A stretch of DNA of 64,000 nt. Origin: a phage. The position numbers and the translations under genes are program-made. The stretch is from assembly GCA_025829515.1 (NCBI GenBank), contig GCA_025829515.1_4865.1, one strand, 5' to 3'. Of this stretch, positions 20,714 through 42,494 are shown one piece after another. How positions within the stretch are numbered: the stretch's first letter is position 1; each line of letters begins with the position of its first letter. Below the pieces are notes generated by a model, which did no database searches, was not told where the DNA came from, and saw only the letters and a list, made by a program, of their open reading frames with translations.

Positions 20714-20723
20714 GGATTTTGAC

Positions 20724-21569: not shown

Positions 21570-21590
21570 TCCTGAGTAAAGGAAGTAAGA

Positions 21591-22502: not shown

Positions 22503-22509
22503 TTAGGCC

Positions 22510-22556
22510 TCGCTGGGAGGAGGAAATCCTCCTCCTGGCTACTCCTTTCTTTTTTG
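22510..22556 (+). terminator. intrinsic terminator
   Basis: gggaggagg-aaat-cctcctcc hairpin followed by T-run. Confidence 0.7.
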
Positions 22557-22571
22557 GCCGAGGAGGCTATT

Positions 22572-23411: not shown

Positions 23412-23421
23412 GAATTAGCGA

Positions 23422-24309: not shown

Positions 24310-24312
24310 TTG

Positions 24313-25140: not shown

Positions 25141-25143
25141 GTG

Positions 25144-25171
25144 TAGGGGCTCTTCGGAGCCCCATCTTTTG
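25144..25171 (+). terminator. intrinsic terminator
   Basis: ggggctc-ttcg-gagcccc hairpin followed by atctttt. Confidence 0.7.
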
Positions 25172-25187
25172 GCGATGCGGAGTCCCT

Positions 25188-26600: not shown

Positions 26601-26611
26601 AGGTATCATCT

Positions 26612-27610
26612 ATGTCTTTTACTTTGCGTTGGAAAAATCCAAACGTAATCTCTACGGTAGTAAAAATCTACCGTGATGTTAAAGATATCACACCAAGCGC
26701 TTTGCCTGAACCGATTGCAACGCTCTCAAACGGCGAGACAGAATGGCGTGATACCACCGCCACACCAGGCGCAACCTATTATTACCTTCTGACGGTAACC
26801 GCCAACGGTAAAACAGTGGCATCGTCTAGCCAGAAATATACCATTGAACTGAAGCGGGGAATCGGTCCAATGACTATTCTAAACGGTGACGACCGTTTAG
26901 GGTTTATGGGTGCGGTTCCTTACGACGAACAGTGGCTTCCGTCGCAAATGCCACCTGCATTTTTGGCGATGTTCCCTAACCTACTAACCGATCGTGTGGC
27001 GTTGTATAAATTTACCCGAAACGGGAAGATCTATTACATGCTATCTAGCACGTCGCAGTTCCCGAATACGCCTGTGGACTGGGCTTCCCTCTATCAAGCT
27101 GGTTTAGTCTACGGTACAGGCGATGCTGGCCCAGAGAACGGCCATGGAACGCTACCGGCCACTCCACAAGACGCTAAGATAGTCCACAGAGGGGATACGT
27201 ACATTATGCGTCTTCCTCGCGGCCTGACGACGTCTAGCGAGTCTCCTGCGTATCCTTTCGTGGCTGACTACAATGGGAAAACCCACGATGAAATCGCTTC
27301 TCTAACCAACCCGTGCGAGTATAACGATTTACTTTACACGATGGTTAACGAGGTGCCGAAGAAACAACGTTGGGCTAACTGGGCAACAATCGGTTATACT
27401 TATCTGGGACAGGGTACTTTGGGAACCTTGGCACAGTATTTCGGCGGTGGTGTTCTCTGTATGGAACACGACACCGCGGAAGACCGTGTGCTCCATCGTG
27501 GTATTTTTAACAATGCCGGTGGAACACCCGTATCCACGATTCAGCGTATAAACTATTTATCACCCACCACGAAAGGGCGCTACTACCCTATCTTTGAACT
27601 GGTCGAGTAA
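26612..27610 (+). CDS. module 1 B-type protein (fibronectin-III-like N-domain plus core domain)
   Basis: N-terminus RWKNP...IYRD...TYYYLLTVTANG (FN3-like pattern, inferred); core ends YYPIFELVE. Confidence 0.7.
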   Translation: MSFTLRWKNPNVISTVVKIYRDVKDITPSALPEPIATLSNGETEWRDTTATPGATYYYLLTVTANGKTVASSSQKYTIELKRGIGPMTILNGDDRLGFMGAVPYDEQWLPSQMPPAFLAMFPNLLTDRVALYKFTRNGKIYYMLSSTSQFPNTPVDWASLYQAGLVYGTGDAGPENGHGTLPATPQDAKIVHRGDTYIMRLPRGLTTSSESPAYPFVADYNGKTHDEIASLTNPCEYNDLLYTMVNEVPKKQRWANWATIGYTYLGQGTLGTLAQYFGGGVLCMEHDTAEDRVLHRGIFNNAGGTPVSTIQRINYLSPTTKGRYYPIFELVE

Positions 27611-27619
27611 GGGGCAGTC

Positions 27620-28543
27620 ATGACTATACGGTTAAGCTGGCCGTCCCAAGCCAGCAAAGGTCTTACCGCGATTGAAATCTACCGCAAGGAAGGATGGAAC
27701 GCAACAATCGACGTTTACAACCCAGGCACACCCCACGCCACCTTATCCGGTAGCGCGGTAGAGTTCGTAGATAATATCGATACCCTGACGAAGAATACAA
27801 CTTATCGTTACTGGGTAGCTGCTGTGAAAGATAATGAACGACTTATCGGCAATCCGATTACGCAAGGGTTCTATCCGGACACTGGACCGGGGCCACAAAC
27901 TATTTTGCGTGGCGATTGGGCGTCAGGCTATTTCGGTACGGTATCTAATACCGAGTTCTTTAATACTGCCGAGTTAAAACTCATGTTAACCGCGCAGCAG
28001 GGAAACATGTTTACTTACGACCCTCAGGAATGGCACAAGTTTATTTTCCGTGGGCGAATTGTCTTCTTCCCAGCGACGATGCATTCGAAAAGCAACTCGG
28101 TACAAATGGCGTATCAGTACGGCATGATGTACGGGACCGATGATGTCGGAAGTATTGTTCCGCAGGGAGCCACGGCGACTAAACAAGATTGTAAGGTCAC
28201 GAAGGATGGTCGTACGTACCGTATCCGATTACCTTACGCAGTCCCGTACGACGCGGCACTCTCAGGACAGGATTACAACAACGGTGAATGGCGAAACACA
28301 ATGGGCCGTTTGTATCCTGTCGGTGCACAGTACGCAGCCCTCGGTCTTGGTGCGATTGACTCACTTGAAAGACAAGGCGCGACTGCGCAGCCGAATGAGT
28401 CAGGTGCCGCTGTATTAGCTCCTTTGTGGAGCAACAACATATTCGCTTATGCGTATGGCACCGTGCCTATGGGGATTAGTAACACCGCAGGTGTCGGGAA
28501 CTCGGCCACGATATTCTTTGCTTTTGAATTAGTCTTACCGTAA
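27620..28543 (+). CDS. module 1 C-type protein (FN3-like N-domain plus GPGP core domain)
   Basis: IEIYRK...TTYRYWVAAV, DTGPGPQTILRGDWASGYFG, ends FAFELVLP. Confidence 0.7.
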   Translation: MTIRLSWPSQASKGLTAIEIYRKEGWNATIDVYNPGTPHATLSGSAVEFVDNIDTLTKNTTYRYWVAAVKDNERLIGNPITQGFYPDTGPGPQTILRGDWASGYFGTVSNTEFFNTAELKLMLTAQQGNMFTYDPQEWHKFIFRGRIVFFPATMHSKSNSVQMAYQYGMMYGTDDVGSIVPQGATATKQDCKVTKDGRTYRIRLPYAVPYDAALSGQDYNNGEWRNTMGRLYPVGAQYAALGLGAIDSLERQGATAQPNESGAAVLAPLWSNNIFAYAYGTVPMGISNTAGVGNSATIFFAFELVLP

Positions 28544-28556
28544 TGGAGTAAATACC

Positions 28557-29975
28557 ATGGGGTTGTATACAGAACCTTCAATGGAACTGCTCTGCCAACA
28601 AATTGTGCGTGACAATCCCGGTTTAGCAGGAAAAATCACCCCTGACTCCATTGGGGTCAGGGGTGTTCCTGTTGCGAAAAACGTTAACGGACGAAACACT
28701 CAGATTACGTTGGTAGGAAAACCCGGTAAAGGATTTGCTGGGGAAATAACGGTATATTACGACCGGTTGAATCTGGCCAGTCTATTTAAGTCTGGCCCGA
28801 ATATGGTGAGTATTCCACGTAGCGCACAAACCCATGCGGAAGCGTTACCGGCGTTCAATGAATTGAACGGGTTGAACTTAACCGCGAGTGACATCACCAG
28901 TCCAAACGTTGCATTAATGAAATACGCTACGCCGGAAACTGTAACTCTGACGGCGCACGCTAACTCCTTGTGTTATACCGGGTCATGCAAGATGACCTAT
29001 GTTTACGAACCGATTGCGATGTATCCGAAGTCGGGTCCTGGGCCAAAAGGATTAATGGCCGGTAATGAGTTATACGGATTCTTTGGGCTGGTAAGCGCGG
29101 AAGAGTTATTCACATCTGATGAAATGGTGTATGCCCTCTATAACGGCACCAACTGGCCTAACCGCTACGCTATCAAGTGGCTCAAATTCTTTCTGAATGG
29201 GGCGGTAGTGTTTGTTCCGACCCGTGCGATTTGCAACGTTACCTGGGCAGACCTGTACAACAAGGGTGCAATATTTGATTCCGGAGACGCAGGACCTCGC
29301 CCGAAGTCGACTTACACACCTGTCGATGTTGAACAGTTGAAATACATGGTAAAACGGGATGATGAAGGAACGCATTATTTCAGAATGTCTATCCCGTATT
29401 ACACCGAGAACGCCGCCGCGCCTGATTGGAGTAAACCGCCGTCAATCACCTCTATCCTGTCACTGACCAGCAAATTGGGGTCGGTGAACGTATATGGGGA
29501 GTGGGGAACTCTTAGCACGACTGATGCTAACTTCCTGGATTACGTGTGGTTACGACATCAGTTCGGTGCCGACCAAGCGTATTACCAGTCTATCAGTGGG
29601 AGCTATCGTTCATACACCTACATCTACACCTCTTCTGGCTTTTGGCCAATCCTGGAGATGTTTGATGTTGCCAATGAACCTGTGCCGTTGATTGACGAAG
29701 GTGCAGAGCTAACATGGGCACCGTCCGTGGTTACTCTGACGGACATCGACCAAAATGAATCGCTTCGTGTGGTGCCTATTACGGAAACCTCCGCTGCAGC
29801 GAATCCACGTCCTCTGCTTGCCGCGACGGACAATGATGAACGTGCATATTCCGTCGCGGTAACAGGCATGGCTAGCGTTAAGATTAGACCGATTATTCTC
29901 ACGACTGACCAAATCGCCCAACCTTCAAAAATTACTCTGGGCGATACTAACGGTGAGTTGGATGGATTCCAATAA
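28557..29975 (+). CDS. paralog-family protein, long type with NGELDGF tag, module 2
   Basis: ITVYYDRLNLASLF, KSGPGPKGLMAGNELYGFFG, ends TNGELDGFQ. Confidence 0.7.
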   Translation: MGLYTEPSMELLCQQIVRDNPGLAGKITPDSIGVRGVPVAKNVNGRNTQITLVGKPGKGFAGEITVYYDRLNLASLFKSGPNMVSIPRSAQTHAEALPAFNELNGLNLTASDITSPNVALMKYATPETVTLTAHANSLCYTGSCKMTYVYEPIAMYPKSGPGPKGLMAGNELYGFFGLVSAEELFTSDEMVYALYNGTNWPNRYAIKWLKFFLNGAVVFVPTRAICNVTWADLYNKGAIFDSGDAGPRPKSTYTPVDVEQLKYMVKRDDEGTHYFRMSIPYYTENAAAPDWSKPPSITSILSLTSKLGSVNVYGEWGTLSTTDANFLDYVWLRHQFGADQAYYQSISGSYRSYTYIYTSSGFWPILEMFDVANEPVPLIDEGAELTWAPSVVTLTDIDQNESLRVVPITETSAAANPRPLLAATDNDERAYSVAVTGMASVKIRPIILTTDQIAQPSKITLGDTNGELDGFQ

Positions 29976-29987
29976 GAGGTAACGACA

Positions 29988-30974
29988 ATGGCTTTTACAA
30001 TTCGTTGGACGAACAATAACCCTGGGGCTTCGACCGTGAAGCTGTACCGCGACACCAAACCTCTGGTGCGTACGGCATTACCTGAACCTCTGGCAACGTT
30101 CACTGACGGGGAAACTGAGTATACTGACCGAACGGCGATACTGGGGACAACGTATTACTACATGACCACCGTGACAGTGGGAAGCCGGACACTGTTCAGT
30201 CCGCAGAAATCAATTCTGATTCAGAACCGTCGCGGTATCGGCATCGTGGCTCCACAGTACGGTGATGACCGCTTTGCGTATTACGGGTATGTGGCGTACG
30301 GTGAATTACCTAGCGCGGGTGATTATCCGCCAGGGTTTGTGGCCCTTTCTGGATACGACCCAACTGTTAAGCCGGGCTTGATGAAGTTCCAGCTAGACGG
30401 TAAAATTCTGTATCTGTTTAGTGGTCTTCGTGTGAACGGCAACACGCTGTATAGCCGTGATGCGATTTATAACGCGGGTTTGCTGTACGGTGTGGCGGGA
30501 CCTGGTCCGGAAGGCGGTCATGGCGATTTACCTGACGTTGACCAGGCTGGGGAGTTTACGTGGTTGGGTGACCGCTATCGGATGCGCCTGCTGCGCGGTT
30601 TAACACTCGACAGTGAAAGCCCGGTCATGACACTCGATGCACAGTGGAACGGTAAACTCCATGACGCGTCACCGTATACTGCCGATAGCGAATACAACCG
30701 ACTCATCTATGGGATAAGTAGCTGGTTCCCAGAAAAGAAAAAAGTGATGTCCCTGATAAAGTGGTCGAACTCCAGCATATTCGGAAGTGGATCGCTGGTG
30801 GCAGGCCGTGGGGCGCATTGTCAGGAGTTTGACCCAGACCGTAAGTTGGGGCTGACGCGCGGATGGGCGGCGGCGGATTCCACTGATACCGTGGATAACC
30901 TCCAGCGTATACAACATGTCCCTGGTGCGACCGGCGGTATTTGGATTCCAGTAATCGAGCTTATCGAGGATTAA
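29988..30974 (+). CDS. module 2 B-type protein
   Basis: paralog of 26612-27610; ends IWIPVIELIED. Confidence 0.7.
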   Translation: MAFTIRWTNNNPGASTVKLYRDTKPLVRTALPEPLATFTDGETEYTDRTAILGTTYYYMTTVTVGSRTLFSPQKSILIQNRRGIGIVAPQYGDDRFAYYGYVAYGELPSAGDYPPGFVALSGYDPTVKPGLMKFQLDGKILYLFSGLRVNGNTLYSRDAIYNAGLLYGVAGPGPEGGHGDLPDVDQAGEFTWLGDRYRMRLLRGLTLDSESPVMTLDAQWNGKLHDASPYTADSEYNRLIYGISSWFPEKKKVMSLIKWSNSSIFGSGSLVAGRGAHCQEFDPDRKLGLTRGWAAADSTDTVDNLQRIQHVPGATGGIWIPVIELIED

Positions 30975-30976
30975 TC

Positions 30977-31876
30977 ATGCCTATTACATTAAACTTTGCA
31001 CAACGGAAGCCACAGGCGCTCGATAACATTGAAATCTATCGCAAGACGCCGGGCAACGCCACCATTGATGTTAATGCACCGGGAACGCCTCTGGCAACCC
31101 TTCCGGGTGACGCTACATCGTACGAAGACAACGCTGTGGAAAACAACACCACTTACCGTTATTGGATTGCTGCGGTTAAAGACGGTGAGCGTGTCTTCAA
31201 CACCCCTACCGCCCAAGGGTTCTTTTTAGACACCGGGCCTGGCCCCCAGAAACTGTTATACGGCGACTGGCACGCTGGATACTTTGGAACAGTAACGCCA
31301 GCAGAGTTATTCACTAACGCGGAACTGAACAGCCTCGTGGTGAATATGTTCAGTTCCGCCGTTGGTGCCTGGCATAAGTTCATTTACAAAAACCGTATTC
31401 TGTTTATGTCCGATAACTCGATAATATACGCTAGCCCGCAGTTCATTTATAACCAGGGGCTGATGTACGGCCAGGATGGCAACGGATATGTGCCGAGCTG
31501 GGCTAGTGCACGTAACCAACGCCGCACGGTGACGAAAAACGGTTACGAATACGTGGTGCGCTTGCCGTATTTGTTCGACTACAAATACTGGACGTCTTTC
31601 GTTGGAGGCGGTAACACCGAGTTGTATCTCGACGGTGAGTGGTTTAACACCTTCGCGCGCCTGTACAACTACAGTGGGCAGTTTCCGCGCTTTGACGACC
31701 TTCCGGTCGGTTCAATCGATTCGGTTACTGCCCAACAATCTGCATTCTTTGCGGCTATGAATAACTCGTTCAGTCAGTGGTACAACCGTCCACCTTACCC
31801 AGAGTCGCCGACATGGAGTAACTACGGTACCACTACAGTGCGTTCTATTGCGGTACTTGAACTCGTTCTGCCTTAA
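30977..31876 (+). CDS. module 2 C-type protein
   Basis: start moved to ATG at 30977 (gagga SD); paralog of 27620-28543; ends AVLELVLP. Confidence 0.7.
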   Translation: MPITLNFAQRKPQALDNIEIYRKTPGNATIDVNAPGTPLATLPGDATSYEDNAVENNTTYRYWIAAVKDGERVFNTPTAQGFFLDTGPGPQKLLYGDWHAGYFGTVTPAELFTNAELNSLVVNMFSSAVGAWHKFIYKNRILFMSDNSIIYASPQFIYNQGLMYGQDGNGYVPSWASARNQRRTVTKNGYEYVVRLPYLFDYKYWTSFVGGGNTELYLDGEWFNTFARLYNYSGQFPRFDDLPVGSIDSVTAQQSAFFAAMNNSFSQWYNRPPYPESPTWSNYGTTTVRSIAVLELVLP

Positions 31877-31887
31877 CAGGAGACTTC

Positions 31888-33330
31888 ATGGGATTGTATA
31901 GCGCACCCGAACTGGAATTACTCTGCCAACAAGTCGTAAGGGATAACCCTGAACTCGCAGGAAGAATCAGCGCTGATTCGATTGGGGTGAGGGGTGTTCC
32001 TGCCGAGACCACTAAGAATGGTCGTAACACGGTAATTACGTTGGTAGGTAAACCCGGTAAAGGTTTCTCTGGGGAGTGCACGGTTTATTACGACCGTTTA
32101 ACATTATCAGATCTATTTAAAATAGCTCCGCGCGTCTACGTACCACAAACGGCCAAGACCGTGCGGGATCTTCTCCCAGCTCTACGTGATTTATACGGTG
32201 TTTGGTTATCTGATAGCAGTGTACAGTCGGTAGACGCGCCTATCAAATCGCTGGCAACGCCAACACGTATTAATTTAACCGCGTATAATAGCGTATGCTA
32301 TCGCGGCTATATCCCGGTCGATTATTTGAATGAAGCCGTAGGGTACTATCCAGATTCTGGGCCAGGCAATAAATATTTGTTGGCAGGGGACAGCACAAAC
32401 GGATACTTCGGTCACGTTTCTCAGCAAGAGTTATTTACCTTTGCTGAACTAAACAACCTAATTCGTCCTGATGTTTCCCCAACGAAAATGACTTTCGAGT
32501 GGTTGAAATTTTTCAAGGACGGTAAGATTGTTTATCTACCGACTACCGGAACGTTAACAGCAACCTGGACGGCCCTTTATCAAGCGGGTGCCATTTTCGG
32601 TACAGGTGACGCTGGTCCGTATCCAGACGGTATCGAACCTGTTGACCAGGCTTTGATTGTCACGAAAACTGAGAATAACAAGACGCATTATTACCGTGTC
32701 TCCGTTCCGGTTAGCCCTGATTTATCAAAGGCCACGCCGTTGTGGCTTATTTCACAACTCGGTGACGGTTCTACGGGTGGCGACTGGGCAAATGACACCA
32801 CGTTAACCAGAACCACCGTCTTCTTCACGCAACAACTGTTAACCGGGGGTAACCCTGTTAAAGTACAACGTTGCAATATGCGCGGTGGCTCAGTTGAATG
32901 GGTAACCCTTGCAGATACCACTTACTGGTGGCCTGTTTTAGAGGAAATCAATAAGGACGACATCGTCTTACCTTTAGCTGATGTGGAAGGGGATGTTGTG
33001 TGGCGCGTTAGGGTTATTCCTAATGTACCATCACCACAACCTGATAGCATTCGCCCTCTTGCAGTCGAGGTTGCGACAACAGATGCGCCGAGACCTCTAG
33101 CAACAACTGCGGAACAGGTGGAAGAACCTATCAGCCCGATTGTGGTGGGTGAACCAAACGTCGATACTGCGCTGCCGTTATCGACAGTGTCGAAGAGCGT
33201 AGGTACAGTTAGGCCGATGGTTGTACTTGAACCACACGTCGACGCACCGCGTCCACTACCGCCTACTCAGGCAGAACCTCCACTTAAAACAGATTTAGCA
33301 ACCGCGAACGGTGAGTTGAACGGCTTCTAA
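31888..33330 (+). CDS. paralog-family protein, long type with NGELNGF tag, module 3
   Basis: CTVYYDRLTLSDLF, DSGPGNKYLLAGDSTNGYFG, Pro-rich DAPRPL repeats, ends ATANGELNGF. Confidence 0.7.
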   Translation: MGLYSAPELELLCQQVVRDNPELAGRISADSIGVRGVPAETTKNGRNTVITLVGKPGKGFSGECTVYYDRLTLSDLFKIAPRVYVPQTAKTVRDLLPALRDLYGVWLSDSSVQSVDAPIKSLATPTRINLTAYNSVCYRGYIPVDYLNEAVGYYPDSGPGNKYLLAGDSTNGYFGHVSQQELFTFAELNNLIRPDVSPTKMTFEWLKFFKDGKIVYLPTTGTLTATWTALYQAGAIFGTGDAGPYPDGIEPVDQALIVTKTENNKTHYYRVSVPVSPDLSKATPLWLISQLGDGSTGGDWANDTTLTRTTVFFTQQLLTGGNPVKVQRCNMRGGSVEWVTLADTTYWWPVLEEINKDDIVLPLADVEGDVVWRVRVIPNVPSPQPDSIRPLAVEVATTDAPRPLATTAEQVEEPISPIVVGEPNVDTALPLSTVSKSVGTVRPMVVLEPHVDAPRPLPPTQAEPPLKTDLATANGELNGF

Positions 33331-33340
33331 GGAGTAACAG

Positions 33341-34339
33341 ATGGCTTTCACACTACGCTGGAAAAATGAAAATCCGGCAGGTTCAATTGTTAACATTTAT
33401 CGGGGCACGGCTAAAATAAATACAGCCGCATTACCAGCCCCTATTGCAACTTTAAGTAATGGCGAAACGGAATGGACGGACGAAACCGTTATTCTTAACA
33501 CCCGTTACTGGTATCTTTTAACAGTAACTGTTAACGGTCGTACCGTAGGTAGTCCACAAAAATCCATTGTCATTAAAAACCGTCGTGGTGTGGGTGGCGT
33601 CGACCAGATTAACTATTCCGATACTGACGACTTGGCGTTTCTGGGGCAGTTGCCGTTCGAAGAACAGATGACCTATGACGCGTTGCCTGCAGGCTTTCGT
33701 GCATTAACAGGGATATCGGGCACGGGCACGCTAATCATGAACAAGTTTTATCGTCATGGTAAAGTTTACTACATGATGAACAGCGGCGGACGATTTAACT
33801 CTACACTTTACTCGTGGAATGACATTTATAACGCGGGGCTTGTGTACGGTGTTGATGGATTTGGTCCTGATAACGGACGTGGGGATTTGGCAGGTGTTGA
33901 CCAGAGTGGGTTGTTTGAATGGCAAGGCGACACCTATCGGATGCGATTGCTGCGCGGTTTAACCGACGGGGACGAACCGACAGTAATGACATTGGATGAA
34001 TCGTTGCGAAACGCAGACCATGATGACTTGGAATATGGTCGCTGCGAATATAACGATTTTGTTTATCCGTTCGGAGAATGTATCCCTAACAAACAAATGC
34101 TCCCTAACTGGACTAATATTAGTCCAGCGTCCATTTATGGGAGCGGTAGCGCTTACCAAGGCAAAGGTTTCTTGTGCCAAGAACGTGATCCTGAATCGGG
34201 ATTAGTTCTGGTTCGCGGGTCTGCGCCTATCGATTCAAGCATAACCAATACGTCGAAACGTAACCTCTCCCAAGTTACGTTAGTTGATAGTGCTGAGAAG
34301 GTCGGTTTGTACGCATTCGTTATCGAGTTAGTGGAGTAA
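33341..34339 (+). CDS. module 3 B-type protein
   Basis: paralog of 26612-27610 and 29988-30974; ends YAFVIELVE. Confidence 0.7.
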   Translation: MAFTLRWKNENPAGSIVNIYRGTAKINTAALPAPIATLSNGETEWTDETVILNTRYWYLLTVTVNGRTVGSPQKSIVIKNRRGVGGVDQINYSDTDDLAFLGQLPFEEQMTYDALPAGFRALTGISGTGTLIMNKFYRHGKVYYMMNSGGRFNSTLYSWNDIYNAGLVYGVDGFGPDNGRGDLAGVDQSGLFEWQGDTYRMRLLRGLTDGDEPTVMTLDESLRNADHDDLEYGRCEYNDFVYPFGECIPNKQMLPNWTNISPASIYGSGSAYQGKGFLCQERDPESGLVLVRGSAPIDSSITNTSKRNLSQVTLVDSAEKVGLYAFVIELVE

Positions 34340-34342
34340 AAC

Positions 34343-35245
34343 ATGTCGATTATCTTAAACTGGAAACAACAGTCAGGTCAGACTTTAGATTCCATTGAAA
34401 TCTATCGTTACGACAACCCTAGACAAAGTGTTAACCCAGTAGCACCGGGGGAACCCATTGTAACACTACCAGGTAACACAACGACGTACGAGGACAAGAC
34501 CACCGAAGCGTATAAAACGTATCAATATCGCATCGTGGCGGTAAAGGGCACTGAAAAGGTTATGGGGCTGCCGATTGTACAGGGCGACTTTCCAATGACA
34601 GGGCCCGGCCCACAGGAACTTATTCGTGGCGATTGGCATCGTGGCTACTTTGGCACACTGACAAACAAAGAATTTATTCTTAACCATGCCGAGCTGAATG
34701 GTTTAATTGGCTTTAATGCCTGGAACCAAGCTCCAACATTGTTCCATAAATTCGTTTTCAAAGGACGCATTCTGTTCATTCCTGACACGGTGACCCGTTT
34801 AGGGACGTCGTGGGAAGAACAATACCGGCAAGGTCTGGCCTGGGGAACAGATGACTACGGTTTCCCGCCAGGGGGCGTCACTACCACTAACCAGCGTCGG
34901 ACATTTAATAAAGACGGTTACGAGTATGTGGTACGCTTGCCTCGACTCGGAGACTACAGTTATGGGCACAGCACCTACCTAAGCAGCGGTGGTTATTTTC
35001 AAGACGGCGAGTGGCACAACACGTTCGCAAGCTTGTTCCGGTACGCGGGCGTCGTAAGACGTTTTGGCGACTTACCGATGCGCTCCGGCGGTAGTCCAAC
35101 CGATTCAAGCGCAACATTGTTTGCCAACGGTCGTGACATCTACAACGCCTGGTACTATCGCAGCAACTCACCAGACTCACCATCGTATACCTATTCGACC
35201 GATAGCGCGTCGGTAGTCCACGTTATCGAATTGGTTCTTAGCTAA
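34343..35245 (+). CDS. module 3 C-type protein
   Basis: paralog of 27620-28543; MTGPGPQELIRGDWHRGYFG; ends HVIELVLS. Confidence 0.7.
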   Translation: MSIILNWKQQSGQTLDSIEIYRYDNPRQSVNPVAPGEPIVTLPGNTTTYEDKTTEAYKTYQYRIVAVKGTEKVMGLPIVQGDFPMTGPGPQELIRGDWHRGYFGTLTNKEFILNHAELNGLIGFNAWNQAPTLFHKFVFKGRILFIPDTVTRLGTSWEEQYRQGLAWGTDDYGFPPGGVTTTNQRRTFNKDGYEYVVRLPRLGDYSYGHSTYLSSGGYFQDGEWHNTFASLFRYAGVVRRFGDLPMRSGGSPTDSSATLFANGRDIYNAWYYRSNSPDSPSYTYSTDSASVVHVIELVLS

Positions 35246-35256
35246 CAGGAGCTAAT

Positions 35257-35553
35257 ATGGGGTTTTACTCATCCACTGCACTTGAGCTGTTGTGTCGGCT
35301 CATTCAGCGGGATAATCCCCAACACGCAGGTCGAATCAGCGCAGATTCAATTGGGGAGTGTACGATCTATTACGATAAGTCGTTAAGCAGTAACACAGTG
35401 GCCGATGTTACCACCGCATCCAACTCGTTCGCTAATAAAGCGTACGGCCGCGCGGTTATCCAAACTGACGTCGAAGCAGCTGGAGTTAAAGGGATAGCGT
35501 ACTTCACCATAACAGCTAAAAATAGGCCCCGAAGGGCCTATTTTCTTTTTTAG
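35257..35553 (+). pseudogene. chimeric, frameshifted remnant of the paralog family
   Basis: first ~33 codons match long-type N-termini, then jumps to a short-type C-terminus; a 1-nt difference relative to the YYHYNS-stop ending removes the stop and the frame runs into the terminator hairpin. Confidence 0.6.
35521..35553 (+). terminator. intrinsic terminator
   Basis: aataggcccc-gaag-gggcctatt hairpin followed by ttcttttttt. Confidence 0.8.
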
Positions 35554-35562
35554 GACGTTGCA

Positions 35563-36882
35563 ATGATCAACTATAACAAACCTGTCATGCAGCTGGTTTG
35601 GGATCAGATTAATCGTGATAACCCGCAGCTCAAGAAACCACTCAACGCAACCAACGTGGCGTTATTACAAGGTCCTTTAACCAATGCCTTGCGCGATGGC
35701 CGCAACAGCCGTATAGTGGTAAACGGATTACAGGGTGGCGGTTACAGCGGTAAGATGGACATCTACTACGACCGCTTAAACCTTTCGCAGTATTTTAAAG
35801 GCGTCAGCGTACCGGTTAAAGTACCTTATCGGGCGACGTCCTACCGCGACATCATCGACCGGATTTCCGCAGCTTGTGGGCTGGTGCTTACTGCTGACGA
35901 TTTAACGTATCCTGACAGCCAGTTTGCAATGATCACTGTGGCAACGGGCGATCGGACGGTGGCGATTAAATCGGATAACCCCGCATTCACGGGTCACATT
36001 CCTATTAGCTTTATTCGTGAAGAGCCCAGCTTTGCCGACTTGTACCACACCACCGAAACCGGAGCTTGGGAACCCATGGATGTTTACAGCACGGTCTATC
36101 GACTCGACTGGAGCATGTACACCCAACAGATAATCAATATTCCAATGGGTACCCCGCTGCGACTAAACAGTAACTCGTACATGACCCAGTTCATCGCGGC
36201 GCTGTCGGCATGGTCGGGCATCCCGTTCACTATCGGTAATGCTGCTACCGATAACCCGTATGACCTCTATGGGTATGTCGCTACACGCAATAACAACCCA
36301 GGCTTAGACCCTGATATGCGTGGGGAGTACAATTACTGCGTGAAGTTGACGCCACCTGAGGATATGGGTAATCTCCGTCGTCCGTTCTTCTTGCACTTTG
36401 GTCCGAAAAATAACGTGGCCTATTTGGCGCAGGAAAAGGACGTCGAACGTTATGCGCGTTACATGAGGTTCCGGGAAACCAGCTCAAATTCGATGAGCGT
36501 CACGTTGTATCAAAACGAGTACGTGTTGACTCGGGCAGAATCGCCTGAAACTGCGGATGATTTAACGGGTTCCCCGTATGGCACTCGATACTGTACCGGG
36601 AGTATTCGACGGCTGATGCAACACGCGTTTCCGACCGAAGAGATGTTCCAAGAAAGTATTGCTAACCGACGTCGGGTACTGTACCACACTGCTTACACCA
36701 CCACGACATCAGCTATTACTTACCAGGGACTATACCGTAACGGATACCAATCCAAACAAATGACGAGCCTCTACTCGAATTACTGTAACTATTTCATCTA
36801 TTACGACCCAAGCAAAGGCGGCTATATGGTCTACAGTCCATATAGCAAAACCGCCCCGGTCCCTTGGTATCCAGCGCTATAG
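35563..36882 (+). CDS. paralog-family protein with a distinct C-terminal domain
   Basis: N-terminus MINYNKP...INRDNP...DIYYDRLNLS is family-like; C-terminus YYD..G.M...PY.K.AP.PW shared with the next gene. Confidence 0.65.
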   Translation: MINYNKPVMQLVWDQINRDNPQLKKPLNATNVALLQGPLTNALRDGRNSRIVVNGLQGGGYSGKMDIYYDRLNLSQYFKGVSVPVKVPYRATSYRDIIDRISAACGLVLTADDLTYPDSQFAMITVATGDRTVAIKSDNPAFTGHIPISFIREEPSFADLYHTTETGAWEPMDVYSTVYRLDWSMYTQQIINIPMGTPLRLNSNSYMTQFIAALSAWSGIPFTIGNAATDNPYDLYGYVATRNNNPGLDPDMRGEYNYCVKLTPPEDMGNLRRPFFLHFGPKNNVAYLAQEKDVERYARYMRFRETSSNSMSVTLYQNEYVLTRAESPETADDLTGSPYGTRYCTGSIRRLMQHAFPTEEMFQESIANRRRVLYHTAYTTTTSAITYQGLYRNGYQSKQMTSLYSNYCNYFIYYDPSKGGYMVYSPYSKTAPVPWYPAL

Positions 36883-36896
36883 ACTAAGGTGTCACC

Positions 36897-39074
36897 ATGT
36901 CCTACACTCCTGATTTAGTGGCGACCGTGATTCGGTCGCTCAACCGTAAAAACGCGGTCGCCAAAGCAGTAGACCCCGCTAACGTACGCCTGGTGTCCGT
37001 GGCGCATCGTGACGAAAAAACCCTAGACGTCACACTGACAGGGGGTCCGGGGTATTCAAGTTACGGTCAAATTACGGCCCAAGTCACGAAGCAAAATATT
37101 GCTGATTATTTCGCCAAGGTTAAGTTGGATGCCATTCCCACTTGTGCGTCCATCCACGAACTGTTGCCGCATTTAGACACTCTACTAGGGATTACCTTTT
37201 TAACTGACGACTTTGAAGACCTGCCTATCACTTGGACAAACAATGCTGCGTGTATCACGTTCCAGGCGAAACAGACAAGTCTTATCTGGTACGGCAGCCA
37301 AACGCTAGATGTGATAAACGGTGACGTGGATATCAACACCGTCTACACTGTTACCAACATCATTCTCACGCTAAAGGCTGCGAATAAACAGCAGTGGATT
37401 AACTTCTACTCTAATGCAACCAAACGGATCGTGGATCTTGATAAAGTCGATGTCAGCTCCCCGATGTCCCCGGAGGATATAGGCCAAACCTCTGCGTATA
37501 ACAGCGTCGTAGCTTTGACCGCTAGACCGGGGAGCGGGATGTTTGGAACGAAGTATGTGTTCTTTTCACGTAACAAACTCGAGACATATGCAGGCAAAAC
37601 CACATACGTCCCGGATGATTTCACCGGTAGCCTGCACGATGCTCTGGCCATCGAGACACTCGGCATTCGGAGTGTTTTTGATGTAAACGAAATTGCTCCT
37701 GTAGAGAACCTGGCAGGCGAGTGGCCGAGACAAGTGCAATTGGCACCCGTAGAGGGTTCGTACAAAGTCATGGGCAGTGCCACGTTGAATGTGGCACGCT
37801 ATCAAGATAACGAGCAAACCCTTAACCTGAACTACACAACTACGTCGCAACTTTCGGACAGCTACTGGGCCACAACGTTGACCAACCATGCGGCGTGCGG
37901 GCGTTTGTTTGTTAACGTGACCGTAGATGCGGGGGCTTTCGTTTATCGCGACAGCAACCTGAAACCGACGTTCGTTATCGACGAATTGCCGCAAATTGGC
38001 GAGGTGGTTTGGAACTTCGTTAACCGGGGAACCATTCTTGGTCGTGGTGGTTCGGGTATGGTCTACTCTATGCCTGCGAACACATCAGCGGACGGAGCTG
38101 ACGCAATCCACATTACCGATGCCTTCCGCGGCAAAGTCACCATCGAAAACTACGGCACCATCGCCGGAGGTGGGGGCGGGGGCGACTACTATGCGTTTAG
38201 CACCACCAAGATCGGTGGAGCTGGTGGTGCGCCACTCGGGACAGGCGCGGTGGTGCCCAGCGGCACCAATAACCGTAACGGCTTAGCTGGGTCCCGTGAC
38301 AAAGGCGGTGCTACTCAGTTAGTCGTCGCACAATTTACCGGCTACCAGAGTCGCTACTATGGCGGTCCGGGTGGGGATTGGGGCCAGCCGGGACGATATA
38401 CAGCGTTCGAGCAATGGAACACCCCGGCTACCGGCTCGCCGATCTATGTCTACGGTCGTGAAGACGGGATGTCATGGACTCGCCCTGGGATGGCAGGCGA
38501 AGCCGTCGGTGGGAATAAAAGTATCGTCAACTGGGTATCCGTCGGAACGGTGAAACCGAATGTCACCAACGAGTACCAAGAGTTCCTCGACTACCTCGCA
38601 GATTTAGATGCCAACCGATTGGCCAGTGCGGATGGGATAGATAAAGTCACCGACCCAACCAAGCCTGTAGTTGTGGAGTTCTTAGGTACGATTATTTCAG
38701 GTACGCTGTTCCAAAAGCAAAACATACCCGGCGGTTTGGTGGGAACACCATACGGCGATGCTGTAGCCAACTTACCAGCCACCACATTGTTTGGTATCAT
38801 GGCACACTGTGTATCGGAGTTTGATATTGTGCACGACACTTGGCGTTACAACCGCGCGGTGATGTTCACGCTAAAACCCGCACCTACCGGGGCGATTAGC
38901 CTCGCTGTGGAACGCAACCGGGTGAAATCGGCTACCAGTAGTGCACCGGTGGAGAAGTTCTACGTCGATCGCTTCGTGTATTACGATGCGTATCTCGGTA
39001 AAATGATGGAATGTAATCCGTATACCAAATCTGCCCCTAAACCGTGGGTGCGGCCAACGATACCGTTATCGTAA
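36897..39074 (+). CDS. paralog-family protein with Gly-rich region (725 aa); candidate receptor-binding protein
   Basis: Gly-rich tract IAGGGGGGDYYAFSTTKIGGAGGAPLGTG; C-terminal domain shared with 35563-36882; stop is followed in frame by FNEELDGFKA-stop. Confidence 0.65.
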   Translation: MSYTPDLVATVIRSLNRKNAVAKAVDPANVRLVSVAHRDEKTLDVTLTGGPGYSSYGQITAQVTKQNIADYFAKVKLDAIPTCASIHELLPHLDTLLGITFLTDDFEDLPITWTNNAACITFQAKQTSLIWYGSQTLDVINGDVDINTVYTVTNIILTLKAANKQQWINFYSNATKRIVDLDKVDVSSPMSPEDIGQTSAYNSVVALTARPGSGMFGTKYVFFSRNKLETYAGKTTYVPDDFTGSLHDALAIETLGIRSVFDVNEIAPVENLAGEWPRQVQLAPVEGSYKVMGSATLNVARYQDNEQTLNLNYTTTSQLSDSYWATTLTNHAACGRLFVNVTVDAGAFVYRDSNLKPTFVIDELPQIGEVVWNFVNRGTILGRGGSGMVYSMPANTSADGADAIHITDAFRGKVTIENYGTIAGGGGGGDYYAFSTTKIGGAGGAPLGTGAVVPSGTNNRNGLAGSRDKGGATQLVVAQFTGYQSRYYGGPGGDWGQPGRYTAFEQWNTPATGSPIYVYGREDGMSWTRPGMAGEAVGGNKSIVNWVSVGTVKPNVTNEYQEFLDYLADLDANRLASADGIDKVTDPTKPVVVEFLGTIISGTLFQKQNIPGGLVGTPYGDAVANLPATTLFGIMAHCVSEFDIVHDTWRYNRAVMFTLKPAPTGAISLAVERNRVKSATSSAPVEKFYVDRFVYYDAYLGKMMECNPYTKSAPKPWVRPTIPLS

Positions 39075-39114
39075 TTTAACGAGGAACTTGACGGGTTTAA
39101 AGCCTGAAGATAAT

Positions 39115-39152
39115 CCATGCCCTCTTCCCCACGGGGAAGAGGCTTTCTTTTT
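39115..39152 (+). terminator. intrinsic terminator
   Basis: cctcttcccc-acgg-ggaagagg hairpin followed by ctttcttttt. Confidence 0.75.
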
Positions 39153-39179
39153 ATGACCCTATCAACTCAGGAGGTTATC

Positions 39180-39770
39180 GTGGTCGATCGTTGGAGTAAA
39201 GAGGGCATTATTCGTGCCAAAGTAAACATCGAAGCCGGTTACGTTAATAACCCGAAAGATTTGGGCAAAGCAACGAACCGCGGTGTCACCGAACTCACTG
39301 CGCGCGAATATGGCTATAAAGGGGATATGCGTGACCTGAGCTTAGAAATCGCGTTAGACATTTACAACAAGCTCTGGTGGCAGCGGATGCGTTTAGACCA
39401 GATTATGAAAATGAATGTCCTGCTAGCTGACCGAATGTTTGATTTCGGCATTAACGCAGGACGCGGTAACTGTATCAAGTCCCTGCAACGTATTCTGAAC
39501 GTATTAAACCGTCAGGGTAAACTATACGATGATATCGATGCCGATGGTGGTATCGGGCCACGTACGTTAACAGCGTTAGAAGGCTTCATCAAAGCCCGTG
39601 GGGAAGAGGGCCTGAATCGACTGATGTTCGCTTTAACCTGTCATCAGGTTGCGTACTACACGGAAATCAGTGAAGGGCGTGAGGATAACGAAGAGTTTAC
39701 TTACGGCTGGTATGGCCGCGTCTATCAGGAAATGCCAGACTACGTGGCTAAGTTGGGGATGTGCAAATGA
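39180..39770 (+). CDS. endolysin, glycoside hydrolase family 108-like with PG_binding_3-like C-terminus
   Basis: EAGYVNNPKDLGKATNRGVTELTAREYGYKGDMRDL and DGGIGPRTLTALEGF, NEEFTYGWYGRV match the GH108-type phage lysin pattern; start placed at GTG after AGGAGG (in-frame ATG at 39153 lacks an SD). Confidence 0.8.
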   Translation: MVDRWSKEGIIRAKVNIEAGYVNNPKDLGKATNRGVTELTAREYGYKGDMRDLSLEIALDIYNKLWWQRMRLDQIMKMNVLLADRMFDFGINAGRGNCIKSLQRILNVLNRQGKLYDDIDADGGIGPRTLTALEGFIKARGEEGLNRLMFALTCHQVAYYTEISEGREDNEEFTYGWYGRVYQEMPDYVAKLGMCK

Positions 39771-39868
39771 AACAGAATTGGTTTGCTGCCTTAATGAAAG
39801 CTATCTGGCGCGCCCTTGTTTTTGCCGCAAGGAGAAAACGTAATGACCCACCGTCCAACTCCGCCTAA
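39767..39868 (+). CDS. small hydrophobic ORF (33 aa); candidate lysis-cassette membrane protein
   Basis: ATGA overlap with endolysin stop; WFAALMKAIWRALVFAA then basic tail; below the ORF-track size cutoff. Confidence 0.3.
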   Translation: MKQNWFAALMKAIWRALVFAARRKRNDPPSNSA

Positions 39869-39995
39869 GTTCCCCGAAGTACAAACCGTTCCGGAAACGT
39901 ATTACGATTCTGGGTTCTTCAAACTATTACGCGCGATCTTCTGTCGGAGGGTAAAGCCATGCAATACGACAACGACGACTGGCCGAAAGGCTTAA
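39843..39995 (+). CDS. small ORF (50 aa)
   Basis: ATG preceded by aaggagaaaacg SD. Confidence 0.25.
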   Translation: MTHRPTPPKFPEVQTVPETYYDSGFFKLLRAIFCRRVKPCNTTTTTGRKA

Positions 39996-40051
39996 TGCCC
40001 ATTTTACTGGGATTAATGGTCCTCACGATGCTCGTGCGTTATATGACGTGA
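39959..40051 (+). CDS. small single-TM ORF (30 aa); candidate holin or spanin-like component
   Basis: ggagg SD; PILLGLMVLTMLV transmembrane-like segment. Confidence 0.3.
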   Translation: MQYDNDDWPKGLMPILLGLMVLTMLVRYMT

Positions 40052-40058
40052 GGTCAGT

Positions 40059-40700
40059 ATGGAAGCACTTAAGTATAAGTTGTTAGAGAAGCCGTGGTTT
40101 ATCCTCACGGATGATTTCCATTTCGAGTTTACGTTGCGCAGCCTCTATCGTGAACACGCCGGAATGGATGCGATGGTAGCATTAGCAGGTCTGCATCCGG
40201 ATACCCCGTTATGGGTAACGGTACCGAAAGGATTTGTGACGGACCTGGCAAGCATTCCAGAAGCGTTACGTCCTATCCTGCATCCGGATGGGCCTTGGGC
40301 TGCTGCCGCTTGTGTGCATGATTTGTTTTACCAGAAACGTTCATCGGTAGGCTTTTACCCTGACACTGTCGAAGGTAATCTATCTCGTGCATGTGACAAA
40401 ACATTCGCTGACCTGATGTTCTTACGTATCATGGAGGCATTAGGCGTTGACACCTTTATTCGTAAGTCCTTCTACCATGCCGTTCACGAGTTTGGTTGGC
40501 CGTCCTATGTAGACGATAACTCTAAGGTGGTTTATAGCCGGCCGGTAGAAAAGACGTTGTCCTATAATCGCAACTACCTGTTCTTTAGAACGTCGCGTAC
40601 GTTAGCGATTCCTGAACACGAACGTGTTGACATTACTAATGGGCAACCGGTAAACGTGCAGTATTTGAATATCAAACGTGCGTTCCTGACTACCCCTTAA
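40059..40700 (+). CDS. DUF1353-like protein
   Basis: KGFVTDLASIP resembles the DUF1353 F-x-T-D-G-A-S-I-P signature. Confidence 0.5.
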   Translation: MEALKYKLLEKPWFILTDDFHFEFTLRSLYREHAGMDAMVALAGLHPDTPLWVTVPKGFVTDLASIPEALRPILHPDGPWAAAACVHDLFYQKRSSVGFYPDTVEGNLSRACDKTFADLMFLRIMEALGVDTFIRKSFYHAVHEFGWPSYVDDNSKVVYSRPVEKTLSYNRNYLFFRTSRTLAIPEHERVDITNGQPVNVQYLNIKRAFLTTP

Positions 40701-40709
40701 GGAGAGAAA

Positions 40710-41225
40710 ATGTTTCATCCGAATCCTGCCAACTTCGCGTTAAAAGAGTTGATGCCGCAGGAGTACATCGCGAAATACGGTGAAGGTGCTATTCGTTTCC
40801 TTAATCCGTTACTGCTAATCTCGCTCCAACAGATTCGTAATCGTTTTGGGCGGATGGTGATTTTAACCAGTTCCCAGCAACAGCGTAGTCTGCGTACCCT
40901 GCAGTTCTTTATTAATCAAGAGAAACCAAAGGGTGGAGATTGGCAAACTCGTGCAAACAAACTGTACGCCGAATCAGGCAGTATGCATAAATTCGGTAAT
41001 GCGTTTGATGCAACAATGCTTGATACTCCGTTGCAGAAAGTACACGACTATATTGCCGCGAACCCTAACGAGTTTCCGTTTATTCACTTTATCGAGTGCG
41101 ATATTACCTGGCTGCATGTTGACGTACGCAACCAGCCTGATATCACCTTCTGGTCACCGACACGTGGTACCGTTAAAGTGGTTAAGCAACAACCCATCGA
41201 TTGGAGCAAGCTAGTTAAAATCTAA
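40710..41225 (+). CDS. peptidase M15 (VanY/L-Ala-D-Glu peptidase)-like protein
   Basis: SMHKFGNAFD fits the SxHxxGxAxD zinc-binding motif of M15 peptidoglycan peptidases. Confidence 0.45.
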   Translation: MFHPNPANFALKELMPQEYIAKYGEGAIRFLNPLLLISLQQIRNRFGRMVILTSSQQQRSLRTLQFFINQEKPKGGDWQTRANKLYAESGSMHKFGNAFDATMLDTPLQKVHDYIAANPNEFPFIHFIECDITWLHVDVRNQPDITFWSPTRGTVKVVKQQPIDWSKLVKI

Positions 41226-41304
41226 GCCACTTTAATCAAAAGTAATATCATTTATCATTTGATACGTTTAATGCGCTTAGAGAGCGTTACAGAGCGTTTT
41301 AGAG

Positions 41305-41362
41305 GGTAAATAAAGCCCTTACCCACTCCCCTTACGGGAGTGGGTAAGCATTATTTATTTTC
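41305..41362. terminator. bidirectional intrinsic terminator between convergent genes
   Basis: cttacccactcc...ggagtgggtaag hairpin flanked by an A-tract on one side and a T-tract on the other. Confidence 0.7.
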
Positions 41363-41842
41363 TTCTAACGGAACAATCGTAATCGGAGTAGGAACTTCAC
41401 CGATAAACCCGCTGCTGCAGCGAAAGAATGTCATCCCTTTACCTTCGCCGGTATACGGGTTCACATCCGAAAAAGAGTAAGTGGGGCTATCGTTTACGGT
41501 TTTATTAATACGGTAATAACGCTCACCTGTGGTGGTGTTAACATTCCCGTCGATTTTGCCAATTGTATCTTTAAACATCATCGGTGACTCTAGTTTGCCA
41601 CCGTCCCACGTTGCTACCCAGTTTGCACCCACATCCATTACTGTTACTGACCGCGGCATCATCTGTAGATTGTCCAGAACCGGACGGTAGTCTATAAACT
41701 TCTCCTGCGTCCCTGTGCATGTATAAATCACCAAGTCGTGATTCTTTACTGGTGTGGCGCTAAATTGTCCTATGTTGCTTGGCGACTGAACACAACCGGC
41801 CAACAGGTTTATAATCGCGAGTACGATAAATAGACGTTTCAT
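41351..41842 (-). CDS. lipoprotein (signal peptide plus lipobox LLAGC)
   Basis: MKRLFIVLAIINLLAGC; lone minus-strand gene between two bidirectional terminators. Confidence 0.7.
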   Translation of the reverse strand: MKRLFIVLAIINLLAGCVQSPSNIGQFSATPVKNHDLVIYTCTGTQEKFIDYRPVLDNLQMMPRSVTVMDVGANWVATWDGGKLESPMMFKDTIGKIDGNVNTTTGERYYRINKTVNDSPTYSFSDVNPYTGEGKGMTFFRCSSGFIGEVPTPITIVPLEENK

Positions 41843-41966
41843 AGAGTACCTTTCAGTGGTAAAAAAATTTCTCGTTTAACAGCCAACTTTACTGTCATAT
41901 TAAGCCCACTATGTTGTTTTTAGAACGATTTAGTATGCACCACAAACCTACTATAAGGAAACAACC

Positions 41967-42494
41967 ATGGCAGTCATCTCTGCAAAAGACCAACTCGTCG
42001 CGCTGTTTAATGCTGCAAACAGCGGACTGTCTAGTCCGTTAACTTCTGCTGACGTTACATTCGGCGCTGTTGCTGACTATTCACCAGCAGATTCTGGAGA
42101 CACCCGCAACTCCAAACTCACCATCACTGCCACCGCGGAATCCGCTAACTTTACTGGCGAGAAAGAGCTGCATTATACCCGCCTCGATTCATTGAACATC
42201 ATCGGTGCGAAAGCAGTTACCGCTGACCAGGCAGAATGGGATACCGATGAAGAAGTGCTTGCTTTTGTCAACGCAGATCTAATTGCCGCCGGTAAAACGG
42301 AAGATGCGTTTGCATTGTCTGAACTCACCATTTCACGCGAGGACGGCGACAGTGGTGAGAAAATCATCACTGTTATGGTGAAAGAAGGCCACATTAAATA
42401 CCAGCCTGCCAGCCTTGCAGTTTATACTGTAACGCAGCCAATCGTTAAAACTGACCTGAGCACCACCAACGGTGAACTGGACGGATTCGTTTAA
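41967..42494 (+). CDS. short paralog-family member carrying the C-terminal NGELDGF tag
   Basis: DTRNSKLTITA, HYTRLDSLNIIG, ends LSTTNGELDGFV. Confidence 0.65.
   Translation: MAVISAKDQLVALFNAANSGLSSPLTSADVTFGAVADYSPADSGDTRNSKLTITATAESANFTGEKELHYTRLDSLNIIGAKAVTADQAEWDTDEEVLAFVNADLIAAGKTEDAFALSELTISREDGDSGEKIITVMVKEGHIKYQPASLAVYTVTQPIVKTDLSTTNGELDGFV

Follow-up and report, generated by a model that had tools for sequence, protein, structure and literature searches.

What kind of element is the 98-codon open reading frame (ORF) at positions 35257-35553 of the 64,000-nucleotide stretch of phage DNA analysed here (contig GCA_025829515.1_4865.1 of NCBI GenBank assembly GCA_025829515.1; the whole stretch is called the window), and how did it arise? 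A preliminary description of the sequence had regarded it as a chimeric, frameshifted pseudogene, a scar of recombination between a long-type and a short-type gene within an actively shuffled paralog array. The ORF, hereafter the relic, is present as described, on the + strand, as are its parts described below. Comparison with related phages makes it very likely that the relic is a non-functional mosaic of three gene classes, and that it marks the left joint of a larger event, in which the 3′ end of a short gene, its terminator and two downstream genes took the place of the ancestral last triplet of the array.

The locus and its paralog array

The window derives from an SPN3US-like Salmonella jumbo phage of the genus Seoulvirus. 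Megablast of positions 34343-36882 against the deposited phage genomes returns 34 records at 90-99% identity, nearly all of them Salmonella Seoulvirus (SPN3US, SEGD1, the SPFM and SPLA series, SaP7 and JN03), together with the Escherichia phages EC001 and Lh1B and ‘Proteus phage 7’. The relic lies between orthologs of RefSeq ACQ60_gp113 and ACQ60_gp112. The literature name gp168 and the RefSeq tag gp098 refer to one and the same 5.2-kb gene; the two numberings thus sum to 266, and the neighbours of the relic are SPN3US genes 153 and 154 as numbered by Ali et al. 2017. The ORF is unannotated in SPN3US, for which reason published search databases may have lacked it, and is a coding sequence (CDS) labelled ‘virion structural protein’ in SPLA5c; no account of this remnant was found in the searchable literature.

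The surrounding array consists of seven short genes of ~280 amino acids (aa), three long-M-N triplets (T1 to T3), and gp154 and gp155, an 18-gene set of DUF7941 / paralog family B. This family (gps 83, 138-154, 161 and 237) is the largest paralog family of the SPN3US virion, and its members are virion proteins whose assignment to the head comes from their detection in a tailless mutant (Ali et al. 2017, PMC5694885). Their shared module is named DUF7941 (PF25613) in Pfam. The short gene s7 (24313-25140) matches the profile over positions 1-276 with 292 bits, and g31888 and the other long genes, as well as g35563 and g36897, match it from position 1 to ~150-170 only. A preprint on phage Goslar (10.64898/2026.04.21.720040) describes DUF7941 as restricted to chimalliviruses, with a linker between a globular N-terminal domain and a C-terminal domain; head-to-tail association of these parts is predicted to build filaments, for which a role as a host-recognition ‘fibre cloud’ at the baseplate is proposed. 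The two published placements, head proteins (PMC5694885) and baseplate-anchored filaments (the preprint), are in conflict. Sequence searches of the PDB with s7 and L3 found no relatives.

Mosaic structure of the relic

The relic opens with the 5′ end of an L4 gene. L4 denotes the fourth long-gene class, the first gene of the ancestral last triplet (T4), which is intact in JN03. The ribosome-binding site (RBS) AGGAG (35247-35251) stands 5 nt upstream of the ATG at 35257 and is inherited from the triplet-to-long-gene junction. The CAGGAG..ATGGG context also precedes g31888, a related context precedes g28557, and an identical one is found upstream of the intact JN03 L4. Segment A (35246-35327), comprising the RBS and codons 1 to ~24, is 94% identical over 82 nt to the start of this 504-aa gene (L004 12001-12082), which shares the upstream context of the relic, ...GTTCTTAGCTAACAGGAGCTAATATGGGGTTTTAC; by BLASTP, 21 of the relic's first 22 residues are identical to those of JN03 L4. 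The signature CRLI-RDNPQ is common to the relic and the last-triplet long genes Caitlin gp160 and Phobos gp152, whereas g31888 and g28557 read CQQ(V/I)VRDNP. A few residues past RDNP the similarity to JN03 L4 fades and a match to the L3 class begins.

The L3-class part extends over about codons 23-41 and consists of two pieces. Segment B (35309-35356; ..RDNP..AGRISADSIG), from the N-terminal-domain coding region, is 83% identical to nt 53-100 of g31888 (blastn, E = 1e-9), with the peptide AGRISADSI unchanged in the g31888 protein (BLASTP). Segment C (35352-35375; GECTIYYD) is 88% identical to nt 183-206 of the same gene (blastn). The two overlap by the 5-nt TGGGG (35352-35356), implying an in-frame deletion of 87 nt (29 codons) relative to g31888. 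The likeness to the N-terminus of the long-type genes, noticed earlier, is borne out by BLASTP against g31888 (E = 1e-14, 29 identities, a single 29-residue gap), in which residues 1-32 align with residues 1-32 and GECTIYYDK with GECTVYYDR. The internal 87-nt deletion shown by the GECTIYYD block and the L4 class of the first 22 codons had gone unnoticed. An s7 origin of codons 21-45 (PQHAG versus PQWAG) was considered and rejected: the L3-class match is far stronger, with AGRISADSI identical, and nucleotide similarity to s7 is absent upstream of ~35386.

Segment D (35386-35519; blastn, Pfam) is the 3′ end of an s7-class gene, its last ~45 codons, and corresponds to the end of the DUF7941 C-terminal domain. 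It is 78% identical to the s7 3′ end over 94 nt (blastn, E = 1e-15), with one 1-nt gap before the common ...ATAACAGCTAA, and can be aligned to the 3′ ends of s7 in Phobos and Caitlin. The likeness to the C-terminus of the short gene is equally clear in protein comparison (BLASTP, E = 5e-16), and tblastn against all deposited phages leads to gp144/s7 orthologs at E ~1e-12. The single gap, a 1-nt deletion at ~35503-35505, moves the ancestral stop TAA (35517-35519) into another frame, so that translation reads on through the hairpin at 35519-35544, as the preliminary description had recognised.

What survives amounts to ~42 of ~150 N-domain positions and ~45 C-domain positions. Residues 39-83 correspond to positions 228-272 of the 276 in DUF7941 and score 24.4 bits, below the Pfam cut-off of 27. 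With this score and an incomplete N-terminal module, the relic does not qualify as a functional DUF7941 member; it belongs to DUF7941 / paralog family B by descent, as indicated by E values of 1e-9 to 5e-16 and its location inside the array. Its frame is disrupted in the manner of a pseudogene: the stop is shifted, 87 nt of the N-domain are deleted and ~160 middle codons are gone. The translation includes the peptides ISADSIGECTIYYDK and AVIQTDVEAAGVK. With the frame-corrected relic as tblastn query, no intact gene joining its N- and C-terminal parts was found; seemingly collinear matches in CR5 and Derbicus (residues 7-87) are the C-terminal 80 residues of s7 orthologs plus a weak and probably spurious extension. 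These alignments show the relic to be assembled from three classes (L4, L3-class and s7-class), not two, and it is very probably a non-functional pseudogene.

The terminator and the gp154 junction

The s7-class segment leads into an intrinsic-terminator-like hairpin (35519-35551) with stems at 35519-35529 and 35534-35544, a CGAA loop and a following T-run. The 11-bp stem, 4-nt loop and T-run TTTTCTTTTTT are those of a Rho-independent terminator, which is accordingly predicted here; the centroid energy is -15.2 kcal/mol (z = -2.98), and the element is also found in the terminator scan. Across the window, SPN3US, EC001, Phobos and a metagenome contig the stem is invariant, and the loop reads CGAA, TGAA, TTCG or TTCA. 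The spacer AGGACGTTGCA (35552-35562) follows with the RBS of the gp154 ortholog (ATG 35563) and is syntenic with the Phobos gp143-to-gp144 junction. In alignment, AGGACGTTGCAATGAT is identical in the window, SPLA5c, SPLA3, EC001 and Phobos.

The correspondence with Phobos covers the whole junction. The relic's 3′ end, the hairpin and AGGACGTTGCAATG align with the gp143/gp144 junction, where the intact s7 ortholog gp143 ends ...TACTACCATTATAACAGCTAA and AATAAGGCCCTTCGGGGCCTTTTTCTTTTTTGAGGACGTTGCAATGAT leads into the gp154 ortholog, gp144. From the stem and T-run through the spacer to the start context, this junction matches the sequence downstream of the relic. The resident s7-to-g25188 junction of the window carries a different hairpin, GGGGCTCTTCGGAGCCCC, with a T-rich tail (25141-25187), as does the s7-to-first-triplet junction of Caitlin. 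The two hairpins are unrelated and mark two alternative exits from s7, one towards the triplets and the other towards gp154.

The hairpin stem, T-run and gp154 RBS are constant in every state of the locus and in Phobos. This constancy, together with the variation of loop and ORF, argues for selection on the terminator and on gp154 initiation rather than on the ORF. In IMG/VR, a scan for the terminator-to-gp154 junction matched nothing beyond SPN3US and Phobos themselves, and a scan of 35000-35800 against Rfam at E ≤ 1 returned nothing. Sigma-70 promoter sites are no more frequent than in shuffled sequence. Chimalliviruses have their own multisubunit RNA polymerases, to which the sigma-70 model does not apply.

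Proposed replacement of the last triplet

The order of genes in related arrays places the relic at the edge of a larger exchange. Phobos has s7, gp154-like, gp155-like and three triplets (within the stretch fetched), and CR5 has s7, gp154-like, gp155-like and one triplet. In Caitlin and Derbicus, s7 is followed by triplets, without gp154/155. JN03, likewise without gp154/155, has s7, T1, T2, a ~500-bp T3 scar, an intact T4 and the endolysin gene, and the SPN3US type, including the window, has s7, T1, T2, T3, the relic, gp154, gp155 and the endolysin gene. Homology between the window and JN03 stops at 35331 and restarts at 39110, and the intact L4-M4-N4 triplet of JN03 occupies the place of the relic, gp154 and gp155 in the SPN3US type. 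Orthologs of gp154 are found only in SPN3US-type Seoulvirus, Phobos and CR5.

The triplet, not the pair, appears to be the older occupant. An L4-class triplet is the last of the array in Caitlin, Derbicus, CR5 and JN03, and the last seen in the fetched Phobos stretch; JN03 T4 compares with the last triplets of Caitlin and Derbicus at 56-60% aa, and its L4 with Phobos gp152 at 57% aa. This orthology makes T4 ancestral and its absence in the SPN3US type derived. The relic is, in all likelihood, the left joint at which the s7 3′ end, terminator, gp154 and gp155 replaced that ancestral triplet. In the window, the incoming cassette (35563-39107) would comprise the gp154 ortholog (35563-36882), the gp155 ortholog (36897-39074) and a tail relic (39075-39107).

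In the sequence of events that probably accounts for this arrangement, an ancestor with s7, T1, T2, T3, T4 and the endolysin gene would have gained a block reaching from inside an s7-like gene through gp154 and gp155, its source most likely being another chimallivirus with the gene order of Phobos and CR5. The left crossover would lie in conserved N-terminal-domain coding sequence, at the RDNP motif. Deletions mediated by microhomology, together with a frameshift, would afterwards have reduced the chimeric gene. Selection would have persisted only on the terminator hairpin and the start of gp154 translation while the remainder decays. The residual homology of the relic to live paralogs still provides an end-point for further deletions that remove whole triplets.

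The block may also have come from within the genome, through unequal recombination between sister copies of a Phobos-like ancestor that joined the L4 5′ end to s7, creating a large duplication that was trimmed later. The order s7, gp154, gp155, triplets does exist in Phobos and CR5, these phages encode recombination-dependent replication and many paralogs (PMC5694885), and paralog deletions are frequent in the array. The distances of gp154 and gp155 from their Phobos orthologs (50% and 45% aa) are, in addition, about those of the long genes (39-49%). This route would, however, need an exact re-creation of the s7-to-T1 junction hairpin common to the window, JN03 and Caitlin; the s7 part of the relic is as far from the resident s7 (70%) as the s7 of other genera; and more steps are required. 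An intragenomic origin is thus unlikely. A horizontal origin is favoured because the s7-to-T1 junction, common with Caitlin, is older than the SPN3US type, and because the s7 piece of the relic is highly diverged.

Several points weigh against a replacement that left a dead joint behind. Neither the order in which the events took place nor the origin of the cassette is proven. The L3-class pieces call for an extra event, which could be gene conversion, telescoping deletions or a hybrid donor gene. With its good RBS, its ATG and 98 open codons, the relic may well be translated into a peptide. No high-identity donor was found for the s7-like part, the best matches being Caitlin (72%) and the resident s7 (70%), and the right joint shows no recognisable homology to explain a crossover.

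Age and parentage of the chimera

The divergence of the segments separates the relic from the two genes to which it had been traced. Its last 137 nt share 70% identity with the resident s7, 72% with that of Caitlin and 63% with that of Phobos. For the resident gene itself, identity to s7 of SPN3US and JN03 is 98-99%, and to s7 of other genera 69-84%. The s7 piece of the relic has therefore diverged like an ortholog from another genus, and the resident s7 is not its parent. The L3-class pieces are 83-88% identical to g31888, as against 95-99% for orthologous DNA among Seoulvirus phages. The mosaic joints and the 1-nt deletion are common to the window, SPLA5c, SPN3US, SPLA3 and EC001, so the chimera predates the divergence of SPN3US-type genomes and is not itself a sign of ongoing exchange between 31888 and 24313.

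These values bear directly on a recent crossover, in this genome, between the present 31888 and 24313 genes. Nucleotide alignment against the ends of the two genes shows that both similarities are statistically real (E = 1e-9 and 1e-15), and crossovers between paralogs do occur in the array, as in the M2 x M3 hybrid of SPLA5c and the L3 x N3 scar of JN03. The identity to these parents is, however, just 83-88% for the 5′ pieces and 70-78% for the 3′ piece, against 97-99% for orthologous DNA between the phages compared, codons 1-22 are nearer to JN03 L4 than to g31888, a Phobos-type terminator follows the relic, unlike the one that follows the resident s7, and the structure is common to more than 30 genomes. 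Such a crossover is highly improbable. Of the scar described earlier, the chimeric, frameshifted and non-functional remnant holds; 31888 and 24313, at 70-83% identity, are not its direct parents, and the simple two-parent exchange gives way to a replacement at the level of a cassette, T4 against the s7 3′ end, terminator, gp154 and gp155.

Decay of the relic

The relic is not kept as a coding unit among close relatives, as befits a pseudogene: its ORF has 98 codons in the window, 91 in SPLA5c, 30 in SPN3US and SPLA3, and 11 in EC001. The full 317/318-bp form is present in the window and only one other genome, SPLA5c. A 178-bp spacer is found in 29 records, including SPN3US, and in one 242-kb metagenome contig. 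In the three-way alignment of the window, SPN3US and SPLA5c, the difference is a 140-bp deletion between GTCGAA(T/G)CAGC direct repeats, with GTCGAATCAGC (35330-35340) at its left end and GTCGAAGCAGC (35470-35480), exactly 140 nt from the first copy, at its right end. The deletion is out of frame and leaves the 30-codon ORF. A metagenome scan with the RBS and L4 start yielded one SPN3US-type contig, which carries this deletion, and one JN03-type contig, but neither a new intermediate nor an intact ancestor. Between the full-length copies of the window and SPLA5c there are three non-synonymous, two synonymous and one nonsense difference, the last of which lies in the hairpin loop and ends the SPLA5c frame at 91 codons instead of 98. 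The comparison indicates that the relic is dispensable and decaying.

The flanks of the locus differ in their closest relatives. The left part of the window (19001-30493) is closest to SPLA5c (99.0%), and the right part (35470-42370) to the metagenome contig ERZ809539 (99.1%), which carries the 140-bp deletion. This mosaic relatedness suggests recombination among co-circulating Seoulvirus genomes or a recurrent deletion.

The relic might nevertheless encode a functional small protein, for example a mini DUF7941 that caps or modulates filaments, or its translation might matter for expression of the neighbouring genes. The intact RBS and ATG, the 98 uninterrupted codons and the annotated CDS in SPLA5c fit this possibility, as does the presence of bits of both DUF7941 modules, which are proposed to interact between protomers (preprint 10.64898/2026.04.21.720040). 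Against it stand the frameshifting 140-bp deletion in 29 records, including the laboratory model SPN3US, and the reduction to 11 codons in EC001. The last 15 residues are read from the hairpin, and the stop differs between the only two full-length copies; the modules are fragments with a sub-cut-off Pfam score, and the substitution pattern looks neutral. A function of this kind is scarcely to be expected, and decay of a dead chimera remains the preferred reading. An error of sequencing or assembly, or programmed frameshifting in a gene that is otherwise intact, can be dismissed as next to impossible: several SPFM assemblies are indeed indel-rich (37-40 blast pieces over 2.5 kb), but the same joints and 1-nt deletion recur in the independent assemblies of SPLA5c, SPN3US, SPLA3, EC001 and the metagenome contig, so that a frameshift present in all copies is no sequencing error, and correcting the frame adds only ..HNS and a stop without restoring the ~190 missing codons, with no Rfam element matched and the site deleted or truncated in relatives.

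Further rearrangements in the array

Other genomes record further losses, some of which end inside the relic. SPLA3 is without T3, and in its spacer the 5′ end of g31888 passes, within the shared GAATCAGC, into a relic that was already shortened. EC001 and Lh1B are also without T3; in both, the g31888 ortholog breaks off at codon 6, where ATAGCG(C/T)AC forms the joint to the final ~69 bp of the relic, and an ORF of 11 codons results. In JN03, the sole remnant of T3 is an unannotated scar of ~500 bp (L004 11514-12011), in which ~390 nt of the 5′ end of the g31888 ortholog, with an internal stop, run directly into the final ~100 nt of the gene-153 ortholog, an arrangement that recurs in a 3.9-kb metagenome contig (L014, SKDY01006708.1). 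SPLA5c is without positions 30494-33852 of the window (3,359 bp, one repeat unit), owing to a crossover of the paralogs g29988 and g33341 at the conserved ATTTATAACGCGGG. The resulting hybrid gene (L002 14923-15997) contains a ~80-bp tandem duplication, is frameshifted and is annotated as two ORFs; it is a further chimeric pseudogene of the array, although an assembly error is possible.

These states indicate that the array is reshuffled mostly by deletion and that the relic takes part. Comparison across the population places the breakpoints of all Seoulvirus locus states in paralogous sequence or short repeats. The earlier claim of an actively shuffled array is upheld by at least five deletion or replacement states among Seoulvirus genomes; the chimera on which it was based is itself old. 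In nature the array continues to lose repeat units of 3.4 kb, by crossovers at paralog homology and at repeats of 5-11 nt. A polymorphism of a different kind affects g28557, whose product has 472 aa in the window and in SPLA5c but 498 aa in SPN3US, SPLA3, EC001 and JN03, the difference being a 78-bp (26-codon) indel in the repetitive C-terminal region, at window ~29805-29812.

The gp155 ortholog

The gp155 ortholog (36897-39074) ends ...IPLS-TAA and is followed in frame by FNEELDGFKA and a second stop (39075-39107; TTT AAC GAG GAA CTT GAC GGG TTT AAA GCC TGA). These codons correspond to the conserved C-terminal ‘NGELDGF(K)’ tail of the long genes, g41967, Phobos gp145 and CR5_144. The in-frame stop is common to SPN3US, SPLA5c and SPLA3, the tail of SPN3US having an F>V change, and an earlier stop is present in EC001 and Lh1B. 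From its sequence, the tail is either a second decay relic or a candidate for read-through. Should the NGELDGF(K) tail serve as a docking peptide in the head-to-tail assembly of DUF7941 proteins, gp155, having lost it, could be the end of a chain. The protein combines an N-terminal DUF7941 module with a GP38 adhesin domain at residues 373-553 (PF05268, Pfam, E = 5.8e-18) and glycine-rich runs; the predicted GP38 domain fits host recognition better than the ‘head protein’ label of the neighbouring paralogs.

Significance and comparison with known systems

A lone dead gene fragment in a phage is ordinary, though the documentation of this one is exceptionally good; the value of the relic is that of a dated marker of array rebuilding by cassette replacement. 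It also flags a feature that is unannotated in SPN3US and mis-annotated in SPLA5c. The natural variants amount to ready-made deletion mutants, with two or three triplets, with T4 or gp154-gp155, and, in the E. coli-infecting EC001 and Lh1B, without T3. It is possible, though doubtful, that the coding motifs of the DUF7941 N-domain (RDNP, YYDR) and the s7 3′ end with its terminator serve as portable recombination linkers for module exchange. If so, the array would be a natural shuffling system for host-recognition filaments that swaps triplets against gp154-gp155, and the relic would be the footprint of one exchange and the live substrate for the next, the SPLA3 and EC001 deletions ending inside it.

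Among known systems, the closest is the family itself. Every segment of the relic comes from members of SPN3US paralog family B / DUF7941 and lies inside the gene 138-154 array; the relic differs from these members in being fragmentary, sub-cut-off, frameshifted, unannotated in SPN3US and further deleted in most relatives. In SPN3US the prohead protease, too, has a ‘cryptic’ paralog, which is truncated (Ali et al. 2017, PMC5694885). Both are decayed, presumably inactive paralogs in the same phage lineage, but the cryptic protease is an annotated conserved ORF, whereas the relic is polymorphic and being lost.

In T-even phages, distal tail-fibre and adhesin cassettes are reportedly swapped by recombination at short conserved motifs, as Tetart, Desplats and Krisch are said to have described in 1998. 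The likeness lies in the use of conserved coding motifs as crossover points (RDNP here) and in the swapping of downstream modules, the incoming gp155 having a Gp38-adhesin-like domain. The difference is that the product here is a dead chimera, not a working hybrid, and that the gene family is unrelated. Unequal crossover in tandem families such as RCCX/CYP21A1P and the globin clusters gives rise to chimeric pseudogenes and copy-number variation. The array resembles these clusters in its tandem paralogs, breakpoints in homology, hybrids, gain or loss of repeat units and decay; it differs in belonging to a viral genome under headful size constraint and in using microhomologies of 5-11 nt besides longer homology. 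In conclusion, the relic is a chimeric pseudogene, a recombination scar in a tandem paralog family, and as such an instance of a well-known phenomenon.

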